From a plasmid: DNA of 64,000 nucleotides. The stretch lies in sequence record CP113993.1. One strand, written 5' to 3'. A program made the position numbers and the translations under genes. The notes beneath the pieces are model-generated. The model did no database searches. It saw only the letters and a program-made list of their open reading frames with translations, and was not told the origin of the DNA. Positions 2,890-14,389 of the stretch are shown piece after piece (the first letter of the stretch is position 1; every line of letters starts with the position of its first letter).

Positions 2890-3295
2890 ATTAATTGGTG
2901 CTGAACGATCTGAGCGCCAGAATGCGACGTGCTGGGCACATCTCATGTGACGCAAGGAGCGATCCTCTGGGAGCAAAAACGGGAGAAATATTGTTTGGTC
3001 GCCCCAGCGTCCTCTGGAAATTGAGTTCGTGTTGTGTCAAAATCCAACCCACGTTCAGTTGATTAATTCGCAGGCCTTATCCGGCATGTGCACCAGCCAG
3101 ATTGCGTGTCATTGTCTGGAGCGCACCTTTTGATAAGGAATATCCAAGAAGATCAGGCTGGTCACAGAATGCGTTGATGGATCCAATATTGACAACTGTG
3201 ACCGAAGGAGTTTCTGGCCCGATTTCATCAAAAGTTCTCTTATATGCCCTTGCAGAGAGCGAGACGGTAGTGAACTTGCGGTACTAAGAATAAAC
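2890..3295 (-). pseudogene. C-terminal half of an SDR (short-chain dehydrogenase/reductase) gene, degenerate with an internal stop
   Basis: Minus-strand translation gives FTTVSLSARAYKRTFDEIGPETPSVTVVNIGSINAFCDQPDLLGYSLSKGALQTMTRNLAGAHAG, a stop, then GLRINQLNVGWILTQHE. These match the SDR NISS, YxxxK and IRVNAV.PGWI motifs. There is no start codon and the frame is broken. Confidence 0.4.
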
Positions 3296-3558
3296 TGTAC
3301 CGACTCTTCCTGGGCACTGGAATGTTCAGATGTACGACAGAGCCCTGCGCCTTTTGCAATAAATAATTAAAGGACTGGAACATTGCGACCACAGTAATAG
3401 CTGCCTTTAACGAATTTTTGACGTAATTCGCGTGTGAAAGAAGGGAATCGCCCCCCCCGGAACGATCCCCTGAAGGAATGGCAATTCCGTTCACCGCCAA
3501 TATTAGCTTTTTCCGGGCTGTGATAACATCTCCGGGTCATTTTTCAGAGCCAGGGCAG

Positions 3559-4536
3559 ATGAAGAAGAAAAACAGCACACCCACTCCTCACGATGCCACG
3601 TTCAGGCAGTTCCTGACGCAACCGGATATTGCCCGGGATTTCATGGAAATCCACCTGCCCGCAGAGCTGCGGGCCATCTGCGATCTCAGCACGCTGAAAC
3701 TGGAATCAGGCTCGTTTGTTGAGGATGACCTCCGCCAGTATTTCAGCGACGTCCTCTACAGCCTGAAAACCACAGCCGGTGACGGGTATGTTCACGTACT
3801 CATAGAACACCAGTCCTCCCCGGATAAGCATATGGCTTTCCGCCTGATACGCTATGCAGTGGCCGCCATGCAGCGCCACCTGGAGGCTGGCCATAAAAAA
3901 CTGCCACTGGTGATACCGGTGCTGTTCTATACGGGTAAGCGCAGCCCGTATCCGTACTCCACCCGGTGGCTGGATGAGTTTGACGCTCCGGCGCTGGCAG
4001 GCAAACTCTACAGCAGCGCTTTCCCGCTGGTAGACGTTACGGTCATTCCGGATGATGAAATCGCTGGTCATCGCAGCATGGCCGCCCTGACTTTACTACA
4101 AAAGCATATTCACCAGCGGGACCTGGCTGAACTGGTGGACCGGCTGGCGCCCATCTTGCTGGCCGGATATCTCTCTTCATCACAGGTAATATCGCTGGTA
4201 CACTATATAGTCCAGGCAGGCGAAACAGCCGACGCCGAAGCCTTTGTACGCGAACTGGCACAGCGTGTGCCGCAACACGGAGACGCATTAATGACCATCG
4301 CACAACAGCTCGAACAGAAGGGTATTGAAAAGGGACTGCAGCAGGGCCTGCAGCAGGGACTGCAGCAGGGCCTGCAGTTAGGGGAACAACGCGGCATTGA
4401 AAAAGGACGTTCAGAAGGTGAGCGCGAAGCGACACTGAAAATAGCCCGTACCATGCTCCGGAACGGCATTGAACGCAATACCGTCATGAAAATGACCGGT
4501 CTGACTGAAGACGACCTGGCGCAGATCCGCCACTAA
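3559..4536 (+). CDS. Rpn family recombination-promoting nuclease (YhgA-like PD-(D/E)XK, transposase_31 family), full length; copy A
   Basis: Start MKKKNSTPTPHDATFRQF fits Rpn N-termini. The N-terminal nuclease domain is present (VLIEHQSSPDKHMAFRLIRY). The C-terminal region carries a QQGL repeat and the IEKG...RNTVMKMTGLTEDDLAQIRH tail typical of Rpn paralogs. Confidence 0.85.
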   Translation: MKKKNSTPTPHDATFRQFLTQPDIARDFMEIHLPAELRAICDLSTLKLESGSFVEDDLRQYFSDVLYSLKTTAGDGYVHVLIEHQSSPDKHMAFRLIRYAVAAMQRHLEAGHKKLPLVIPVLFYTGKRSPYPYSTRWLDEFDAPALAGKLYSSAFPLVDVTVIPDDEIAGHRSMAALTLLQKHIHQRDLAELVDRLAPILLAGYLSSSQVISLVHYIVQAGETADAEAFVRELAQRVPQHGDALMTIAQQLEQKGIEKGLQQGLQQGLQQGLQLGEQRGIEKGRSEGEREATLKIARTMLRNGIERNTVMKMTGLTEDDLAQIRH

Positions 4537-4817
4537 TCCCCCTGGCACTCCCTGTCCGGCCATCAGCGAATACTGGTGGGACAGGGAGGTACCAGAGTCA
4601 GGCTCTGCCAGCCACAGCGATTAAACACCTTCATCCCCCCCCCCGCTACGTTCCCCGTCAGACGTGTTGTATTCACACTGGAGCACACGCCAGTATTCAG
4701 CAATATCGTTAAGTACCCGCGCCGTCATAACGGCATCTGCCACAGCCGAATGCGCCCGTCCGCTCCAGCTCAGGTCTGCCTGGCTGACAGCACTGGCCAG
4801 CGATATCGTGCCGTAAT
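3970..4817 (+). repeat. Copy A of an inverted repeat shared with 14952..15597: the 3' part of the rpn gene plus about 280 bp of the 3' end of a convergent exonuclease gene
   Basis: Direct comparison: the reverse complement of 4537..4817 matches 14952..15230 almost base for base. Protein-level identity continues from DEFDAPALAGKLYSSAFPLV through IRH. Confidence 0.8.
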
Positions 4818-4985
4818 ATTTTCGCGGCGGGGCACGCCGCGTTAGCCTGTGGGGAGATGGCAGTTTTAGGCCGCTTGATGAAACAGGAACCCACCGTGGT
4901 GAGTCTGACTGCGGTGTGAAGGCTGTAGGTATTCCCCGTCCTTCAGGGCGGGGAGGATATCAAGAGATCTCTGCTTCATGCATTA

Positions 4986-11907: not shown

Positions 11908-12216
11908 TCAGATGAAACGGATTTGTAGTTTTTTGCCGGTTGCTTTTGCAAACTTTTTCAGCGTTGCGAAAGACGGGCCTTTTTTTCCGGAAACGAGATC
12001 GCGTTCCATTCTGGTGATGACGGAGGCTGTGGTTCCCATGTGTTCTGCTATCTGCTCCAGGGTAAGCCCTGCACTTTTACGGGCGGCGAGCATCTCATCC
12101 AGCAAGTCACTCTCTTCGGCGAGGGCATCATATTCGGCTTTGACGGCAGGAATAGCCAACATTTTTGCAACCCATTCGTCAAGTGTCATGGTTGGCGGTG
12201 TGGATTTATCAGTCAT
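11908..12216 (-). CDS. HigA-family (XRE-type HTH) antitoxin-like protein; no intact cognate toxin
   Basis: 102 aa; the C-terminus ...GPSFATLKKFAKATGKKLQIRFI resembles the HigA antidote family. Upstream there is only a 45-codon ORF (MECPENHTSMCVFELKIKVSEDTGRFSVADWLL...). Confidence 0.55.
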   Translation of the reverse strand: MTDKSTPPTMTLDEWVAKMLAIPAVKAEYDALAEESDLLDEMLAARKSAGLTLEQIAEHMGTTASVITRMERDLVSGKKGPSFATLKKFAKATGKKLQIRFI

Positions 12217-13251
12217 GCTACCTCCCTCATTACTTTGGAAACCTTTTTACATTTTTTGATAAGCAGTGAAACATTGCGATCTGCTTAACAACCAGTCTGC
12301 AACAGAAAATCTCCCTGTGTCTTCAGATACTTTTATTTTGAGTTCAAATACACACATTGATGTATGGTTCTCCGGGCATTCCATTCGTTCAGGAAGCGGT
12401 TATAACGAACGTTAACAGAAACAGGTCAATCTCAAGTTAAGTGTCCCATCCTAAATGGCGGAGTTTTATGGTGCATCCGATAAAAATAGTTTTTCGCTGA
12501 TCACTCTTATTTTTTTCGCAAGTTGCCTGTTTTGGTGCGTATTTATGTGGCGATATAGGCTCTTCCCCGGAACAGGAGGGAAACGGTGGATTTTACTAAT
12601 ACGTCTGATACCGGAATACGGTCAGTGATCTGTGTTGGTGCTTCAACGCGGTTGGGGGGGAGGAAAGGAAGGATTAGCTGCTCAACATATGGACAAAAGA
12701 ATATTCAATGGCCTTTTGTTTCTCGGGGAATAATGTTGACCACTGCATGATGACCGTTACCGGTGGCACAGTGTGTGGGGATTACCGTGGACATGTGGTT
12801 ACTAATTTGTTTAGACGGGTTGTCCCATATGTTGAACACTGGCCTGCAGGTACACTGTTATGCTATCTGCCACTGTTCCCGCCCTTGCCTTTTTTCAGAT
12901 CCTTGCACGGGAATAGAGGGATTAAAACAGATATATGTATAAATAACCGTTAATTGTTAGCGCAGGTATGAGTGAAAACATGTCAGCTCAGTTCTGTACG
13001 GTCCTTACAGCGGATAAGGTATTAACACATGCCTGGTTTCTTTACGTGACGGGATGTTTTATCGATCTGGTCTGAGGAAAAGAAAGTCTATTAATATATA
13101 AAAATGTTACAGGAGAATCTGTCACTCGCTGTTTAATATCAATTTTGATCAACTACACTATTTTGAAAAATAAAAGGATATGAAGAAACCTCTGATATCC
13201 TTACCCGACTACACTTATTAATTCGGTAAATATCTCATTTATGGGGGAACC

Positions 13252-13790
13252 ATGAACAATACTGAGTTTGCTAATCCGGCCCCGCTGGGGTTGGCTGCTT
13301 TCGGCATGACAACTGTTCTGCTTAATTTACATAATGCAGGTTTTTTCGCGATGGGCGATATTATTTTGTCAATGGGGATCTTTTATGGTGGTATCGCCCA
13401 GATTTTTGCGGGACTTCTGGAATACAAAAAAGGAAATACTTTTGGTTTGACTGCAGTTGCCTCTTATGGGGCTTTCTGGCTGACTCTGGCCGCAATTTTG
13501 TTGATGCCGAAGGTGGGGCTGGTGGATGCGCCTGATCCCTGATTCCCGGGAATTTATCTGGGGTTATGGGGGGATTACGCTGTTTATGTTTTTTTGCACT
13601 CTGAAATCTGCCCGAATGTTGTAGTTTATCTTCCTTAGTCTGGCAGTGCTGTTTATCCTGTTGGCTGTTGGAAACATCCTCTCCAGCACATCCCTGATCC
13701 GGGTTGCGGGCCGGGTAGGAGTAGCCTGTGGAGCCAGCGCTGTCTACCTGGCGATGGGGGAAGTACTCAACGAACAATAGGGTTGCACTA
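13252..13790 (+). pseudogene. satP: satP (yaaH) succinate-acetate/proton symporter pseudogene with a frameshift and a nonsense codon
   Basis: The first 96 aa are collinear with SatP as recalled ([28 protein letters not shown]...). The reading frame shifts after ...VDAPD. A TAG sits where SatP has Gln (RVLQFVFF read as RML*FIF). The C-terminal ...ICGASAVYLAMGEVLNEQ is recovered in another frame. Confidence 0.75.
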
Positions 13791-14049
13791 TTTTACCTGT
13801 CGGTGACGTTCATCGATCATTCCGGGCACAACATCTATTTTTACCAGGTGTGCCTTATATCCCAGTCATTCAGGATGGAGATATAAGGCACGGTTTTCAG
13901 TCTGGCTATTTTTCGAAAATGCTGGGATAAGACGAGATTCCACCCTTATAGGATTTATACCGATTTATGAGCCAGTTGCTCTCTGGAAAGCGGTATTTCT
14001 GGTCAATATTTAGAGCGTGTTAATAAAAAAGATGGTACTTATATCATTA

Positions 14050-14389
14050 AAAAAATGTGTTTATTGTGACGGTGGCCTGTTCGGGTATCGGCTTTGCCAG
14101 TGCACAAGAAATTGTCAAACAAAGGGGGAAAGTCACCCTGACCACGCGCGAAGATAATGCCGTGGCACTTAGTGACGCTTGTCATATACCGGGTGATCAC
14201 GTTAGCTACAGACCTGGCTGATATATCCGTACCACAGCGTATTGTTGGCTATGCGCAAAAACAGTTTGGGAGGGGCGACGGGCTGGTTAACAACGTAGCC
14301 TGTTTTCCGAGAAACAATTTGAAAAGTATTACTACTGATGTGCCCGATATGTTAATACCGGTCAACCTCAGAGTTCCCTTTATTTCTTA
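14050..14389 (+). pseudogene. N-terminal half of an SDR gene (degenerate), fused in-frame to the downstream exonuclease ORF
   Basis: Translation VFIVTVACSGIGFASAQEIV...GRGDGLVNNVACF...DMLIPVNLRVPF matches the SDR TGxxxGIG and NNAG motifs. It ends exactly where the C-terminal half at 2890..3295 begins. Confidence 0.4.

Follow-up and report, generated by a model that had tools for sequence, protein, structure and literature searches.

Organization of the locus

The window, a stretch of 64,000 nucleotides from plasmid sequence record CP113993.1, belongs to a pESI-like megaplasmid of Salmonella Infantis. It carries a dead short-chain dehydrogenase gene (SDR; adh_short) in two opposite-strand halves around an inverted acid-resistance (adi) segment. 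Approximately 12.5 kb of the window was derived from an IncFIB plasmid resembling pRM11065-2, with the gene order jetA-jetB-jetC-jetD-adiC-tehA-adiA-...-satP-SDR-tnaB. The features of the region are as follows.

1090..2151, + strand: IS630-family transposase gene (NCBIfam NF033545, E 3.9e-77)
2161..3244, - strand: segment C', with the last 36 nt of tnaB, a spacer and the SDR C-half (reverse complement of L011 20744-21825)
2832..3244, - strand: SDR pseudogene, C-half (translation, protein alignment, Pfam adh_short 128-187, DNA alignment)
3240..3244: TTATA, the left junction copy, complement of the SDR's TATAA; also native to the adjoining cyclase-upstream DNA
3245..3421, + strand: ccdA/CBASS-cyclase intergenic fragment, 177 bp, with the first ~40 nt of the cyclase gene (match to L006 and L007)
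3478..4536, + strand: full-length rpn gene, Rpn/YhgA-like PD-(D/E)XK nuclease family (Pfam PF04754, E 4e-86; NCBIfam TIGR01784)
3971..4816, + strand: left arm of the inverted repeat, with the rpn 3' part, a DUF2913 3' remnant and an exonuclease 3' remnant (self-blast, alignment)
4811..14392, + strand: segment B, 9582 bp, collinear with L011 11167-20748 (blastn, 97.6%)
14036..14392, + strand: SDR pseudogene, N-half (translation, protein and DNA alignment, Pfam)
14388..14392: TATAA, the right junction copy, Tyr-Lys codons in the SDR and native exonuclease frames alike
14393..15197, + strand: DEDDh 3'-5' exonuclease without its first ~47 codons (NCBIfam, Pfam RNase_T; flank comparison with L008-L010)
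14945..15597, - strand: right arm of the inverted repeat, with the exonuclease 3' end, a DUF2913 remnant and an rpn 3' fragment (self-blast, alignment)
15595..17386, - strand: segment A', with a disrupted jetA and the jetB 5' end of a type III Wadjet operon (reverse complement of L011 3082-4863; blastn, 97.4%)
17387..18195, - strand: IS26 copy, the right limit of the pRM11065-2-like DNA (L005 annotation, boundary sequence)

One SDR pseudogene in two halves

The N-half covered positions 2-110 of the Pfam adh_short profile and the C-half positions 128-187, and the joined halves gave a single stretch over positions 2-187. At the DNA level, the pieces abutted exactly on the contiguous SDR copies of L001 and L011, with 95-98% identity. 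This profile coverage and exact abutment bore out the proposal, made in an earlier note on this DNA, that one SDR gene lies in two halves on opposite strands. Contiguous SDR copies in the same adi context were present in L001, L002 and plasmid pRM11065-2.

The N-half reads TVACSGIG where TGACSGIG is expected and terminates in ...VNLRVPFISYK. The C-half opens with YKRTFDEIG... and extends to the ancestral stop codon (2832-2834); it has both the VNIGS and the YSLSK motif. In the protein alignment, the SDR protein of intact relatives reads ...VNLRVPFISYKRAFDEIG. The stretch FTTVSLSARA (3245-3290), previously taken as the start of the C-half, is not SDR sequence, and intact relatives read otherwise. 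The Gly-to-Val change, the TAA stop, a 12-bp deletion and a 4-bp deletion were all found in the uninterrupted SDR copies of L001, L011 and L013, indicating that these lesions are older than the split; only an 11-bp deletion in the N-half and a 1-bp insertion were pESI-specific (DNA alignment). The majority of the SDR lesions thus arose before the split, and decay of both halves loses its value as the sign of an old event that the earlier note had seen in it.

Three pieces of an ancestral array

In a blastn map against L011 and L001, the ancestral DNA in pESI fell into three pieces, A', B and C'. Segment B contains adiC, the tehA-like gene, adiA, the tRNA-like element, an HTH gene, the satP remnant and the SDR N-half (NCBIfam, Pfam). 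Segment C' (94.7% over 1085 bp against L011; 95.2% against L001) is the direct continuation of segment B in pRM11065-2 and is reverse-complemented in pESI. In the blastn comparison with L011, segment B was inverted relative to A' and to C' alike; with the jetA/jetB' piece inverted as well, the 9.6-kb adi segment is flipped relative to both of its old flanks. The proposed inversion of the adi-bearing segment relative to the SDR C-half thus agreed with the comparison. The proposal had rpnA travel with the adi genes; the adi segment is indeed inverted, but rpnA is foreign to the ancestral adi segment.

The Wadjet genes of L011 gave PADLOC matches to JetA3 and JetC3, and L001 has a JetD_C domain. 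Missing from pESI are 6.3 kb of the Wadjet operon, namely the remaining part of jetB together with jetC and jetD (L011 4864-11166). By comparison with L011, the left limit of the pRM11065-2-like DNA is the IS630-family element, which ends at ~2160 at a TA and truncates tnaB. At the right limit lies the IS26 copy, the near end of which we take to be ~12 bp short of the IS26 terminal sequence. The match of the window to pN55391 reached 18195 only.

At the left joint, the C-half adjoins the cyclase-upstream fragment, which is 96-97% identical to the E. coli F-type plasmids L006 and L007 (the match spans 3240-3421). PADLOC identified the gene next to the matching region in L007 as a CBASS oligonucleotide cyclase, and these F-type plasmids have no SDR nearby. 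At the right joint, the N-half sequence is fused in frame to the exonuclease in a chimeric ORF of 346 aa (14157-15197), which, among the assembly contexts sampled, occurred in exact form in the pESI arrangement only. Comparison with the native ORF of L010 (290 aa) confirmed that the exonuclease has no native start, the joint having taken away its first ~47 codons; this N-terminus was absent from the window and from pN55391 1-141 kb. At its 3' end, the exonuclease is joined to a remnant of DUF2913.

On either side of segment B lies a partial copy of a single rpn-DUF2913'-exonuclease module that had itself been rearranged beforehand, the two copies being inverted relative to each other. The native form of the module (rpn-DUF2913-hyp-exo-DNA-binding protein) is contiguous in other IncFIB plasmids. 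The left arm has its DUF2913 remnant at 4568-4670 and its exonuclease remnant at 4672-4816. The rpn fragment of the right arm encodes the C-terminal domain alone (NCBIfam Rpn C-terminal matches in ORF 15224-15880, for which PF27070 HTH_Rpn_C was listed), and this arm has a 160-bp internal deletion between GCTGGTA repeats. The inverted duplication measures ~0.65-0.85 kb, and the arms are about 98.5% identical outside a 54-nt patch (self-blast, per-segment identity). Both copies have the same derived exonuclease|DUF2913 fusion, which indicates descent from one progenitor. The plain two-break inversion of the earlier note accordingly falls short of the locus, which also shows the 6.3-kb deletion and this inverted duplication.

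Microhomology at the new joints

All four new joints carry 3-6 bp of microhomology: 5 bp (TATAA) at the SDR|cyclase-upstream joint (3244|3245), 3-5 bp at the SDR|exonuclease joint (14392|14393), 6 bp (CCGTAA) at the exonuclease 3'|adiC-downstream joint, which is the inner edge of the left arm (joint sequence; L010 comparison), and 3 bp (CCA) at the rpn|jetB' joint, the outer edge of the right arm. The two SDR joints have 5 bp in common, TATAA on the right and its complement TTATA on the left. TTATA is native in cyclase-upstream DNA, and TATAA and TAA are native in the exonuclease homologues L009 and L008, respectively; the microhomology at the right SDR joint is just 3 bp if the donor was like the closest known relative, L008, and not L009.

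Breakpoints had previously been placed at 3295/3296 and 14378/14379, with TTTATT(T)CTTA at both junctions. The left copy of that motif (3285-3295) falls 40 nt outside the SDR, within the cyclase-upstream fragment. Because this fragment is native to E. coli F plasmids that have no SDR in its vicinity, its likeness to 14379-14389 arose by chance; the motif 10-mer occurred once in the window, against 0.11 occurrences expected. With the coordinates corrected to 3245..14392, in silico re-inversion gave the predicted collinear SDR homology, with neither gap nor overlap. The exonuclease 5' end and promoter, also predicted to return, did not, the incoming DNA being cyclase-upstream sequence from another plasmid type.

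Distribution of the arrangement

In PLSDB, more than 100 records matched at 100%, and the split-SDR arrangement is fixed in the pESI lineage. The exact RpnA protein was listed in 4736 assembly-collection blocks; 22 blocks were read, and the places shown had the pESI arrangement in 9 of 9 cases. The flipped isomer was found in none of the 103 pESI-type PLSDB records, and the few further assembly contexts sampled were all alike. An intermediate, in which the jet-adi-SDR array is collinear except for an insertion of the module, was not found among the plasmid records and assembly contexts examined. The split SDR is an ordinary scar of plasmid mosaic evolution, with no evident function.

Origin of the arrangement

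We tentatively favor illegitimate recombination at microhomologies as the origin, with replicative template switching (MMBIR/FoSTeS type) as its most economical form. Template switching would account for the four joints in one or two events, whereas a simple inversion would require a pre-formed 1.4-mer of the module in addition to the inversion. In a two-step route, the 2.1-kb module (exonuclease-rpn-cyclase fragment) would have been copied into the SDR at TATAA, and further switches at CCA and CCGTAA would have copied segment B and part of the module backwards, deleting the Wadjet genes and leaving the inverted duplication. Alternatively, four switches may have occurred within a single event. 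In either course the SDR would have been a gene already dead, the TATAA of which by chance served as a switch point.

MMBIR and FoSTeS are microhomology-mediated template-switch rearrangements, and the formation of tandem inversion duplications has been described in Salmonella. The pESI locus resembles the former in its multiple 3-6 bp microhomology joints, in the combination of deletion, inversion and inverted duplication at a single locus, and in joints without mobile-element ends. It differs in being a fixed end product alone, in a natural plasmid, from which replication must be deduced; unlike a symmetric tandem inversion duplication, it keeps one copy of the inverted segment. In sequence alone, a replicative origin is indistinguishable from multi-break end joining, and a single fixed end state does not reveal how many events took place or in what order. 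The near-identical 0.6-kb inverted repeats allow RecA-dependent flipping, so the present orientation is perhaps not that of the primary event.

Such flipping is central to an alternative that we consider unlikely, in which the SDR received the 2.1-kb module at TATAA, with the 5 bp as direct repeats around it, a second, partial copy in opposite orientation replaced the Wadjet genes beside adiC, and RecA recombination between the 0.6-kb repeats later flipped 4817-14944, bringing the SDR halves onto opposite strands. Near-identical inverted repeats of 214 and 356 bp coincide exactly with the two ends of that segment, and undoing the flip in silico gave both rpn-DUF2913'-exo, the native IncFIB order (88% identity, 55 records), and an SDR with a simple insertion between direct TATAA copies. 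However, three events would be required, including an unexplained arrival of the inverted partial copy exactly between jetB' and adiC, and neither the 103 pESI-type PLSDB records nor the other assembly contexts sampled held the flipped isomer. The partial copy also has the derived exonuclease|DUF2913 fusion, by which the duplicate was made in the pESI lineage, and this fits a duplication made by the inversion event itself. Homologous inversions between rrn- or IS-bounded inverted repeats are similar in segment size (~10 kb), repeat length (~0.6 kb) and identity (~98-99%), but the pESI repeats are incomplete copies of a gene module that is not an IS, the break in the disrupted gene lies outside them, and more than 100 sequenced plasmids all show a single orientation. 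A simple two-break inversion with corrected coordinates is likewise improbable. It would consist of one reciprocal TTATA/TATAA exchange between inverted sites 11 kb apart, flipping 3245-14392 in a precursor with ~1.4 head-to-tail module copies between jetB' and adiC and TTATA at the unit junction. The identical 5 bp do stand in inverted orientation at both SDR joints, and re-inversion of 3245-14392 restores the SDR exactly and returns A, B and C to ancestral order and orientation, but it leaves the exonuclease start unrestored, contrary to the earlier prediction. Moreover, the precursor junction that it needs (cyclase-upstream-TATAA-truncated exonuclease) was not found in PLSDB (no record with at least 80% coverage of a 643-nt spanning query), in GTDB representative genomes (no genuine match; a single 22-mer match had no flanking homology) or in JGI metagenomes. 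The sequences joined there natively adjoin other DNA (ccdA-side DNA and the exonuclease 5' end), so the precursor would need a TATAA-mediated fusion and two truncations before the inversion, four events in all.

An inversion driven by a transposon or recombinase, with TATAA as target-site duplication or crossover core, is very improbable and is already largely refuted. The agent would be intramolecular replicative transposition (IS26/Tn3-like), the Rpn "putative transposase" acting on its own element, or a site-specific invertase. An inverted segment with inverted element copies at both ends and an inverted 5-bp repeat is the formal signature of intramolecular replicative transposition as known for IS26 and the Tn3 family, Rpn proteins are annotated as putative transposases, and IS26 and IS630 are close by. 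Both insertion sequences, however, are positioned outside the structure, and the joints have no associated transposase. The module copies are incomplete, being different truncated parts that end within genes and have no element termini, and comparison by eye revealed no terminal inverted repeats between the two ends of the module. The 5 bp pre-exist in the partner sequences of unrelated plasmids, so TATAA was not generated as a target duplication; the remaining two joints rely on different microhomologies, and a flipped isomer was not seen in the 103 PLSDB records. RpnA itself was reported as a nonspecific endonuclease and not a transposase (PMC5350276).

Rpn (YhgA-like) nucleases promote RecA-independent recombination (Kingston et al. 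2017, PMC5350276). In that work, the 3'-OH ends produced by RpnA cleavage serve as primers for a polymerase, and primer-template switching was put forward as the way in which the ends are joined. The pESI locus is similar in that the rearranged module holds a full-length Rpn-family gene and the joints have little or no homology, and primer-template switching from 3'-OH ends agrees with the template-switching model that we favor. The presence of an Rpn gene at the rearranged locus may be a coincidental association. Rpn proteins have in addition been reported as toxin-antitoxin phage-defence genes (bioRxiv 10.1101/2023.05.02.539157).

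Split SDR pseudogene in the adi region

Translation of the two regions concerned revealed SDR-like peptides on opposite strands. The plus strand at 14048-14392 reads KNVFIVTVACSGIGFA... and then, past a frameshift, ...TDLADISVPQ...PVNLRVPFISYK, and the minus strand, from 3244 downward, reads YKRTFDEIGPETPSVTVVNIGSINAF...YSLSKGAL.... On the adh_short profile (Pfam), the N-half covered positions 2-110 and the C-half positions 128-187, and the joined sequence matched as a single stretch (2-187). These fragments were complementary and non-overlapping on the family profile, and they abutted on the uninterrupted orthologue at 10343-10347 of contig L001 and at 20744-20748 of the IncFIB plasmid pRM11065-2 (L011). 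Because the halves complement each other on the Pfam profile, the split is real and not a chance resemblance. Thus, translation, profile coverage and abutment on contiguous copies bore out the view of the earlier note that one SDR gene had been divided into two opposite-strand halves. The start that it had given for the C-half ('FTTVSLSARA...', fourteen codons) is foreign DNA from upstream of a cyclase gene.

Searched against proteins, the joined SDR matched an intact Salmonella SDR of 281 aa (73% identity) and, at 84% identity, a 169-aa protein from a contiguous copy already in decay; across the pESI break point, the protein in relatives reads ...VNLRVPFISYKRAFDEIG.... The intact TGxxxGxG cofactor motif and open frame of a functional SDR were absent, with TVACSGIG in place of TGACSGIG. 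Four lesions are common to pESI and the uninterrupted copies L001, L011 and L013, and therefore predate the split: Gly-to-Val in TGxxxGIG, a TAA stop following AHAG, and deletions of 12 bp and 4 bp. Only an 11-bp deletion (N-half) and a 1-bp insertion (C-half) are specific to pESI. Judging from these alignments, the SDR was dead before the rearrangement struck it. The rearrangement predates the diversification of pESI, but the decay of the SDR gives no date for it: the earlier note had taken the decay of both halves as a sign of an old event, and most of the lesions are shared with uninterrupted copies.

Ancestral arrangement and joints

Contigs L001-L003, the sources of these two proteins, and the complete plasmid pRM11065-2 carry the order jetA-jetB-jetC-jetD, adiC, tehA-like gene, adiA, HTH gene, satP, SDR, tnaB and tnaA (Jet assignments by PADLOC and the JetD_C domain). 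Comparison with pRM11065-2 (L011) gave the following map.

Segments, outer limits and joints of the rearranged region
2160/2161, outer left limit of pRM11065-2-like DNA; IS630 copy at TA
2161-3244, segment C' (SDR C-half and tnaB'); L011 20744-21825, reverse-complemented, 94.7% identity
3244/3245, joint of the SDR C-half with cyclase-upstream DNA; TTATA, 5 bp, native in the E. coli F-type plasmids L006 and L007
~4811-4816, joint of the exonuclease 3' end with adiC-downstream DNA; CCGTAA, 6 bp
4811-14392, segment B (adiC to SDR N-half); L011 11167-20748, same orientation, 97.6% identity
14392/14393, joint of the SDR N-half with the exonuclease; TATAA, 5 bp, if the donor was like L009 (pSAbAus), or TAA, 3 bp, if it was like L008, another exonuclease homologue locus
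15595-15597, joint of rpn with jetB'; CCA, 3 bp
15595-17386, segment A' (jetA and jetB'); L011 3082-4863, reverse-complemented, 97.4% identity
17386/17387, outer right limit of pRM11065-2-like DNA; IS26 end

The orientations of A', B and C' on L011 indicate that B is inverted with respect to both ancestral flanks. L011 4864-11166 (6.3 kb), the remainder of the Wadjet operon, is missing from the window. TATAA (5 bp; L011 20744-20748) is present at both SDR joints, and 14030-14392 followed by the reverse complement of 2850-3239 aligned to contiguous copies without gap or overlap. Complete E. coli genomes proved unsuitable as a synteny reference, as only fragments matched (rpn, IS26 and jetA-like genes).

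The earlier note had proposed an inversion of about 3296..14378 with TTTATT(T)CTTA at both junctions. The adi-bearing segment is indeed inverted, but the true joints lie at 3244/3245 and 14392/14393. The right-hand copy of the motif (14379-14389) is SDR sequence just upstream of the joint, and the left-hand copy (3285-3295) lies inside a 177-bp fragment (3245-3421) that is 96-97% identical to the intergenic region between ccdA and the CBASS cyclase gene of E. coli F-type plasmids. Those plasmids carry the same GGTACTAAGAATAAACTG with no SDR nearby. One occurrence of the 10-mer was counted in the window, where 0.11 would be expected. Since the left copy of the motif is native to F-plasmid DNA, the match is coincidental, and we discarded the motif as junction microhomology.

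Type III Wadjet, an anti-plasmid system, is complete or nearly complete on pRM11065-2-like plasmids (L011 3082-11166); in pESI the rearrangement removed jetC and jetD, and what is left is a disrupted jetA and the beginning of jetB. At the right-hand limit, the IS26 copy (17387-18195) meets jetA-upstream DNA at what would be a further illegitimate joint, with homology of 0-1 bp; at 17387 it seems to be short by ~12 bp of the IS26 terminal inverted repeat. At the left-hand limit, the IS630 copy of the window (1090-2151) cuts tnaB at TA and has on its far side DNA with no relation to tnaB, which suggests an IS630-associated deletion or recombination. The IS630-family transposase protein (WP_023994180.1) is annotated at two sites of the pESI-like reference pN55391, including 10030-11055. 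Between adiA and the HTH gene, ARAGORN reported a tRNA-like structure (10623-10699, tRNA-???, with an aberrant two-base 'anticodon'), which is unrelated to the rearrangement because it lies inside the segment common to pRM11065-2.

Flanking copies of the rpn-exonuclease module

Segment B lies between two partial copies of a module. To its left are the cyclase fragment (3245-3421), a full-length rpn gene (3478-4536), a 3' remnant of DUF2913 and 145 bp of the exonuclease 3' end up to 4816; to its right are a DEDDh exonuclease (14393-15197), again the DUF2913 remnant, and a 3' portion of rpn that extends to 15597. The full-length gene belongs to the Rpn / YhgA-like nuclease family (PF04754, 288 bits against a cut-off of 21; TIGR01784, 279.8 bits against a cut-off of 52.1). 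The copies form an inverted repeat (3971-4816 and 15597-14945), the arms of which are ~98.5-99% identical once four differences are set aside: a divergent patch of 54 nt (4407-4460), a repeat-unit indel of 24 bp, a poly-C tract that differs by one C, and the loss of 160 bp between GCTGGTA repeats. The same derived exonuclease-DUF2913 fusion occurs in both copies, and this indicates descent from a single progenitor.

The module is uninterrupted on other IncFIB plasmids, where the genes run rpn, DUF2913, hypothetical gene, exonuclease and DNA-binding protein. No third copy was found in pN55391 1-141 kb. In a search for the donor locus on pESI, the ccdA upstream region (pN55391 49.6-49.9 kb) matched L009 only downstream of the exonuclease remnant of L009.

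The right-hand rpn copy (15224-15597, against 4193-4536) comprises the C-terminal domain only, listed as HTH_Rpn_C, and differs from the full-length copy by the 54-nt highly divergent patch (18 mismatches) and the GLQQ-repeat indel. It could be a stand-alone variant antitoxin, since separately translated Rpn C-terminal antitoxins have been reported, or a product of gene conversion from another paralogue. The poly-C tracts in the arms (exonuclease/DUF2913 remnant) measure 10 C at 4636-4645 and 9 C at 15116-15124; tract length seems variable across pESI records, shifting the C-terminal frame of the exonuclease, and the annotated exonuclease end in pN55391 differs by 2 nt from the ORF of the window.

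Origin of the structure

Re-inversion, which the earlier note had proposed as a check, was carried out with the corrected coordinates. It restored the SDR and the ancestral order A-B-C, but not the 5' end of the exonuclease. The cyclase-upstream fragment, which natively runs on toward ccdA, is brought to 14393, and the exonuclease natively runs into its own 5' end and the DNA-binding protein gene. No exonuclease N-terminus was present in the three frames upstream of the re-inverted joint, so that restoration was rejected; tblastn with native N-termini matched only residues from ~40-43 onward at 14376, with none elsewhere in the window or in pN55391 1-141 kb. Cyclase-upstream DNA and 5'-truncated exonuclease were not contiguous in any record examined. 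Furthermore, DNA was gained and lost beyond the joints (6.3 kb lost; 0.65-0.85 kb in inverted duplication), unlike in a simple two-break inversion.

A single reciprocal inversion at TATAA/TTATA is conceivable within a pre-existing 1.4-mer of the module, but we do not favour it, as it needs ~four events in total and its precursor was not found. That precursor would have joined cyclase-upstream DNA to the exonuclease through TATAA, a hypothetical junction for which GCAAGGGCATATAAAAATGGATACGGGAG is the diagnostic k-mer; the SDR-exonuclease joint itself reads CCCTTTATTTCTTATAAAAATGGATACGG and the intact SDR junction TTTCTTATAAGAGA, and the intact jetD-adiC joint lies at L011 ~11150-11185. In PLSDB, no record covered at least 80% of the query spanning the precursor junction, and JGI metagenomes contained none. 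GTDB representative genomes gave one exact 22-mer match, in an alphaproteobacterial MAG; with no flanking similarity by blastn and ~0.07 matches expected by chance, it was dismissed as a false positive.

A further possibility starts with insertion of the module into the SDR; an inverted partial copy would have arrived separately, and RecA-dependent recombination between the repeats would then have flipped the segment. The segment is bounded by inverted repeats that are long and near-identical, as homologous recombination requires (4193-4816 and 15543-14945, with stretches of 138, 171 and ~200 nt at >=99% identity). This route needs three events and is likewise not favoured. The flipped isomer, built in silico, matched none of 103 pESI-type plasmids, and the few other contexts sampled had the same arrangement, in a comparison made between sequence records. 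The best matches of the flipped-isomer query were native rpn-DUF2913-exo modules (88% identity), and only one orientation was seen among the related replicons sampled.

Element-driven explanations do not fit. Intramolecular replicative transposition (IS26/Tn3-type) leaves two complete element copies with termini and a transposase, but the copies here are different truncated parts of the module ending inside genes, and IS26 and IS630 lie outside the structure. There was no de novo target-site duplication, since the donor-type sequences L006, L007 and L009 already have TTATA/TATAA at the matching site. A site-specific switch of the Hin/Gin type calls for an adjacent invertase gene and conserved crossover sites; the SDR joints share 5 bp only, with no extended similarity, and the ORFs scanned in 1-18 kb included no invertase, the Rpn C-terminus giving a marginal PADLOC match to a 'putative invertase' model (E 1.4e-6). 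Against both transposition and site-specific inversion, the module end sequences had no terminal inverted repeats (by eye) and the other joints carry different microhomologies.

We favour template switching as the most economical origin; the end-state sequence fits copy-choice or multi-break end joining alike. All four novel joints have 3-6 bp of microhomology to both parents, where MMBIR/FoSTeS predicts at least two joints with 2-6 bp each. The route takes 1-2 events for the four joints and covers the ancestral map, the flanking module and the features of the joints. A 2124-bp module (14393-14944, the repeat, and 4192-3245) would have been copied into the SDR at TATAA. Two more switches may then have followed, one at CCA, leaving jetB' for the opposite strand inside rpn, and one at CCGTAA, returning from the adiC-downstream end to the 3' end of the exonuclease. 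Together they would copy B in reverse, remove the Wadjet genes and produce the inverted duplication. Alternatively, all four switches might have occurred in a single event.

Distribution among pESI plasmids

The region is 100% identical to that of pESI-like Salmonella Infantis megaplasmids such as pN55391 (NZ_CP016411.1), and the same arrangement occurs in >100 PLSDB records. The exact RpnA protein was found in 4736 blocks of an assembly collection, and all nine places listed from 22 blocks had the same neighbourhood. Look-ups of the exact chimeric SDR-exonuclease ORF and of exact RpnA gave the pESI arrangement only, among the matches listed, and a search of metagenomes for variant contexts of the pESI SDR-exonuclease joint found none. 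The window is collinear with pN55391 only up to 18195, at IS26; beyond this IS26 copy it departs from pN55391 and is a structural variant of pESI.

Significance of the locus and possible role of Rpn

This locus corrects the anatomy of a region of pESI, a globally spreading multidrug-resistance/virulence megaplasmid: its adi acid-resistance genes came from a pRM11065-2-like IncFIB plasmid, and the rearrangement also destroyed a type III Wadjet (anti-plasmid) operon. The four precise junction sequences are usable as markers of the pESI lineage. The pESI literature mentions adiC and a modular, rearrangement-prone structure; we found no description in it of the inversion, the SDR split or the Wadjet loss. 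The type of event is well known, and the locus is therefore a new instance and not a new kind of system.

The endonuclease RpnA is reported to cut nonspecifically and to leave 3'-OH ends, and primer-template switching has been proposed for the joining (PMC5350276). A preprint (bioRxiv 10.1101/2023.05.02.539157) presents Rpn proteins as toxin-antitoxin phage-defence genes. In pESI, five joints with short or no homology (the four of the rearrangement and the truncated IS26 end) lie within 15 kb around two rpn copies. It is an attractive idea, though in our view improbable, that the breaks were made, or the template switches primed, by the Rpn nuclease that the duplicated module encodes. If so, the locus would be a natural fossil of Rpn-promoted, RecA-independent recombination: an rpn gene would have duplicated itself in part, eliminated the plasmid-restricting Wadjet operon next to it and secured the adi genes for pESI. 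The clean natural scar of deletion, inversion and inverted duplication, with microhomology at every joint, adjoins an rpn gene, so the proposed link between Rpn and illegitimate recombination can be tested on a real substrate. This substrate and the precise anatomy of a clinically important plasmid are the main value of the locus.

Chimeric ORF and relatives of the exonuclease

The native exonuclease is a 290-aa ORF (3842-4714 of the homologue locus L010), of which the pESI copy is without the first ~47 codons. At the break, a Tyr-Lys pair of exonuclease codons (TAT AAA in L009) corresponds to TAT AAG of the SDR, and an in-frame chimeric ORF of 346 aa (14157-15197) therefore results, which keeps the whole DEDDh domain. 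The pESI-specific 11-bp deletion in the SDR N-half opens this ORF by putting an out-of-frame ATG (14157) in frame with SDR residues. Gene callers called the chimeric ORF in draft assemblies.

The 'DNA-binding protein' gene found ahead of the exonuclease in native modules has a second paralogue, 75% identical, at 59338-60776 of the window (also pN55391 84.3-86.1 kb and L018 34368-36101). This paralogue is followed by an exonuclease-like start (MRDDD...), apparently interrupted ~60 nt on by a group II intron, as indicated by GTGCG at ~60567 (by eye) and an Rfam RF02012 match at 60635-60776; pN55391 has a matching copy with a reverse-transcriptase fragment. In pSAbAus (L009 3996-4251), a degenerate 5' remnant of the exonuclease lies directly upstream of ccdA, and the pESI ccdA upstream region (pN55391 49601-49949) is 98.9% identical to pSAbAus, only from the end of this remnant. 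This comparison suggests that the DNA upstream of ccdA is a site of recurrent recombination in IncF-type plasmids. Elsewhere in the window, 62066-62202 matched the Rfam family of the Hfq-binding sRNA isrN (71.7 bits; gathering score 44), here on a plasmid.
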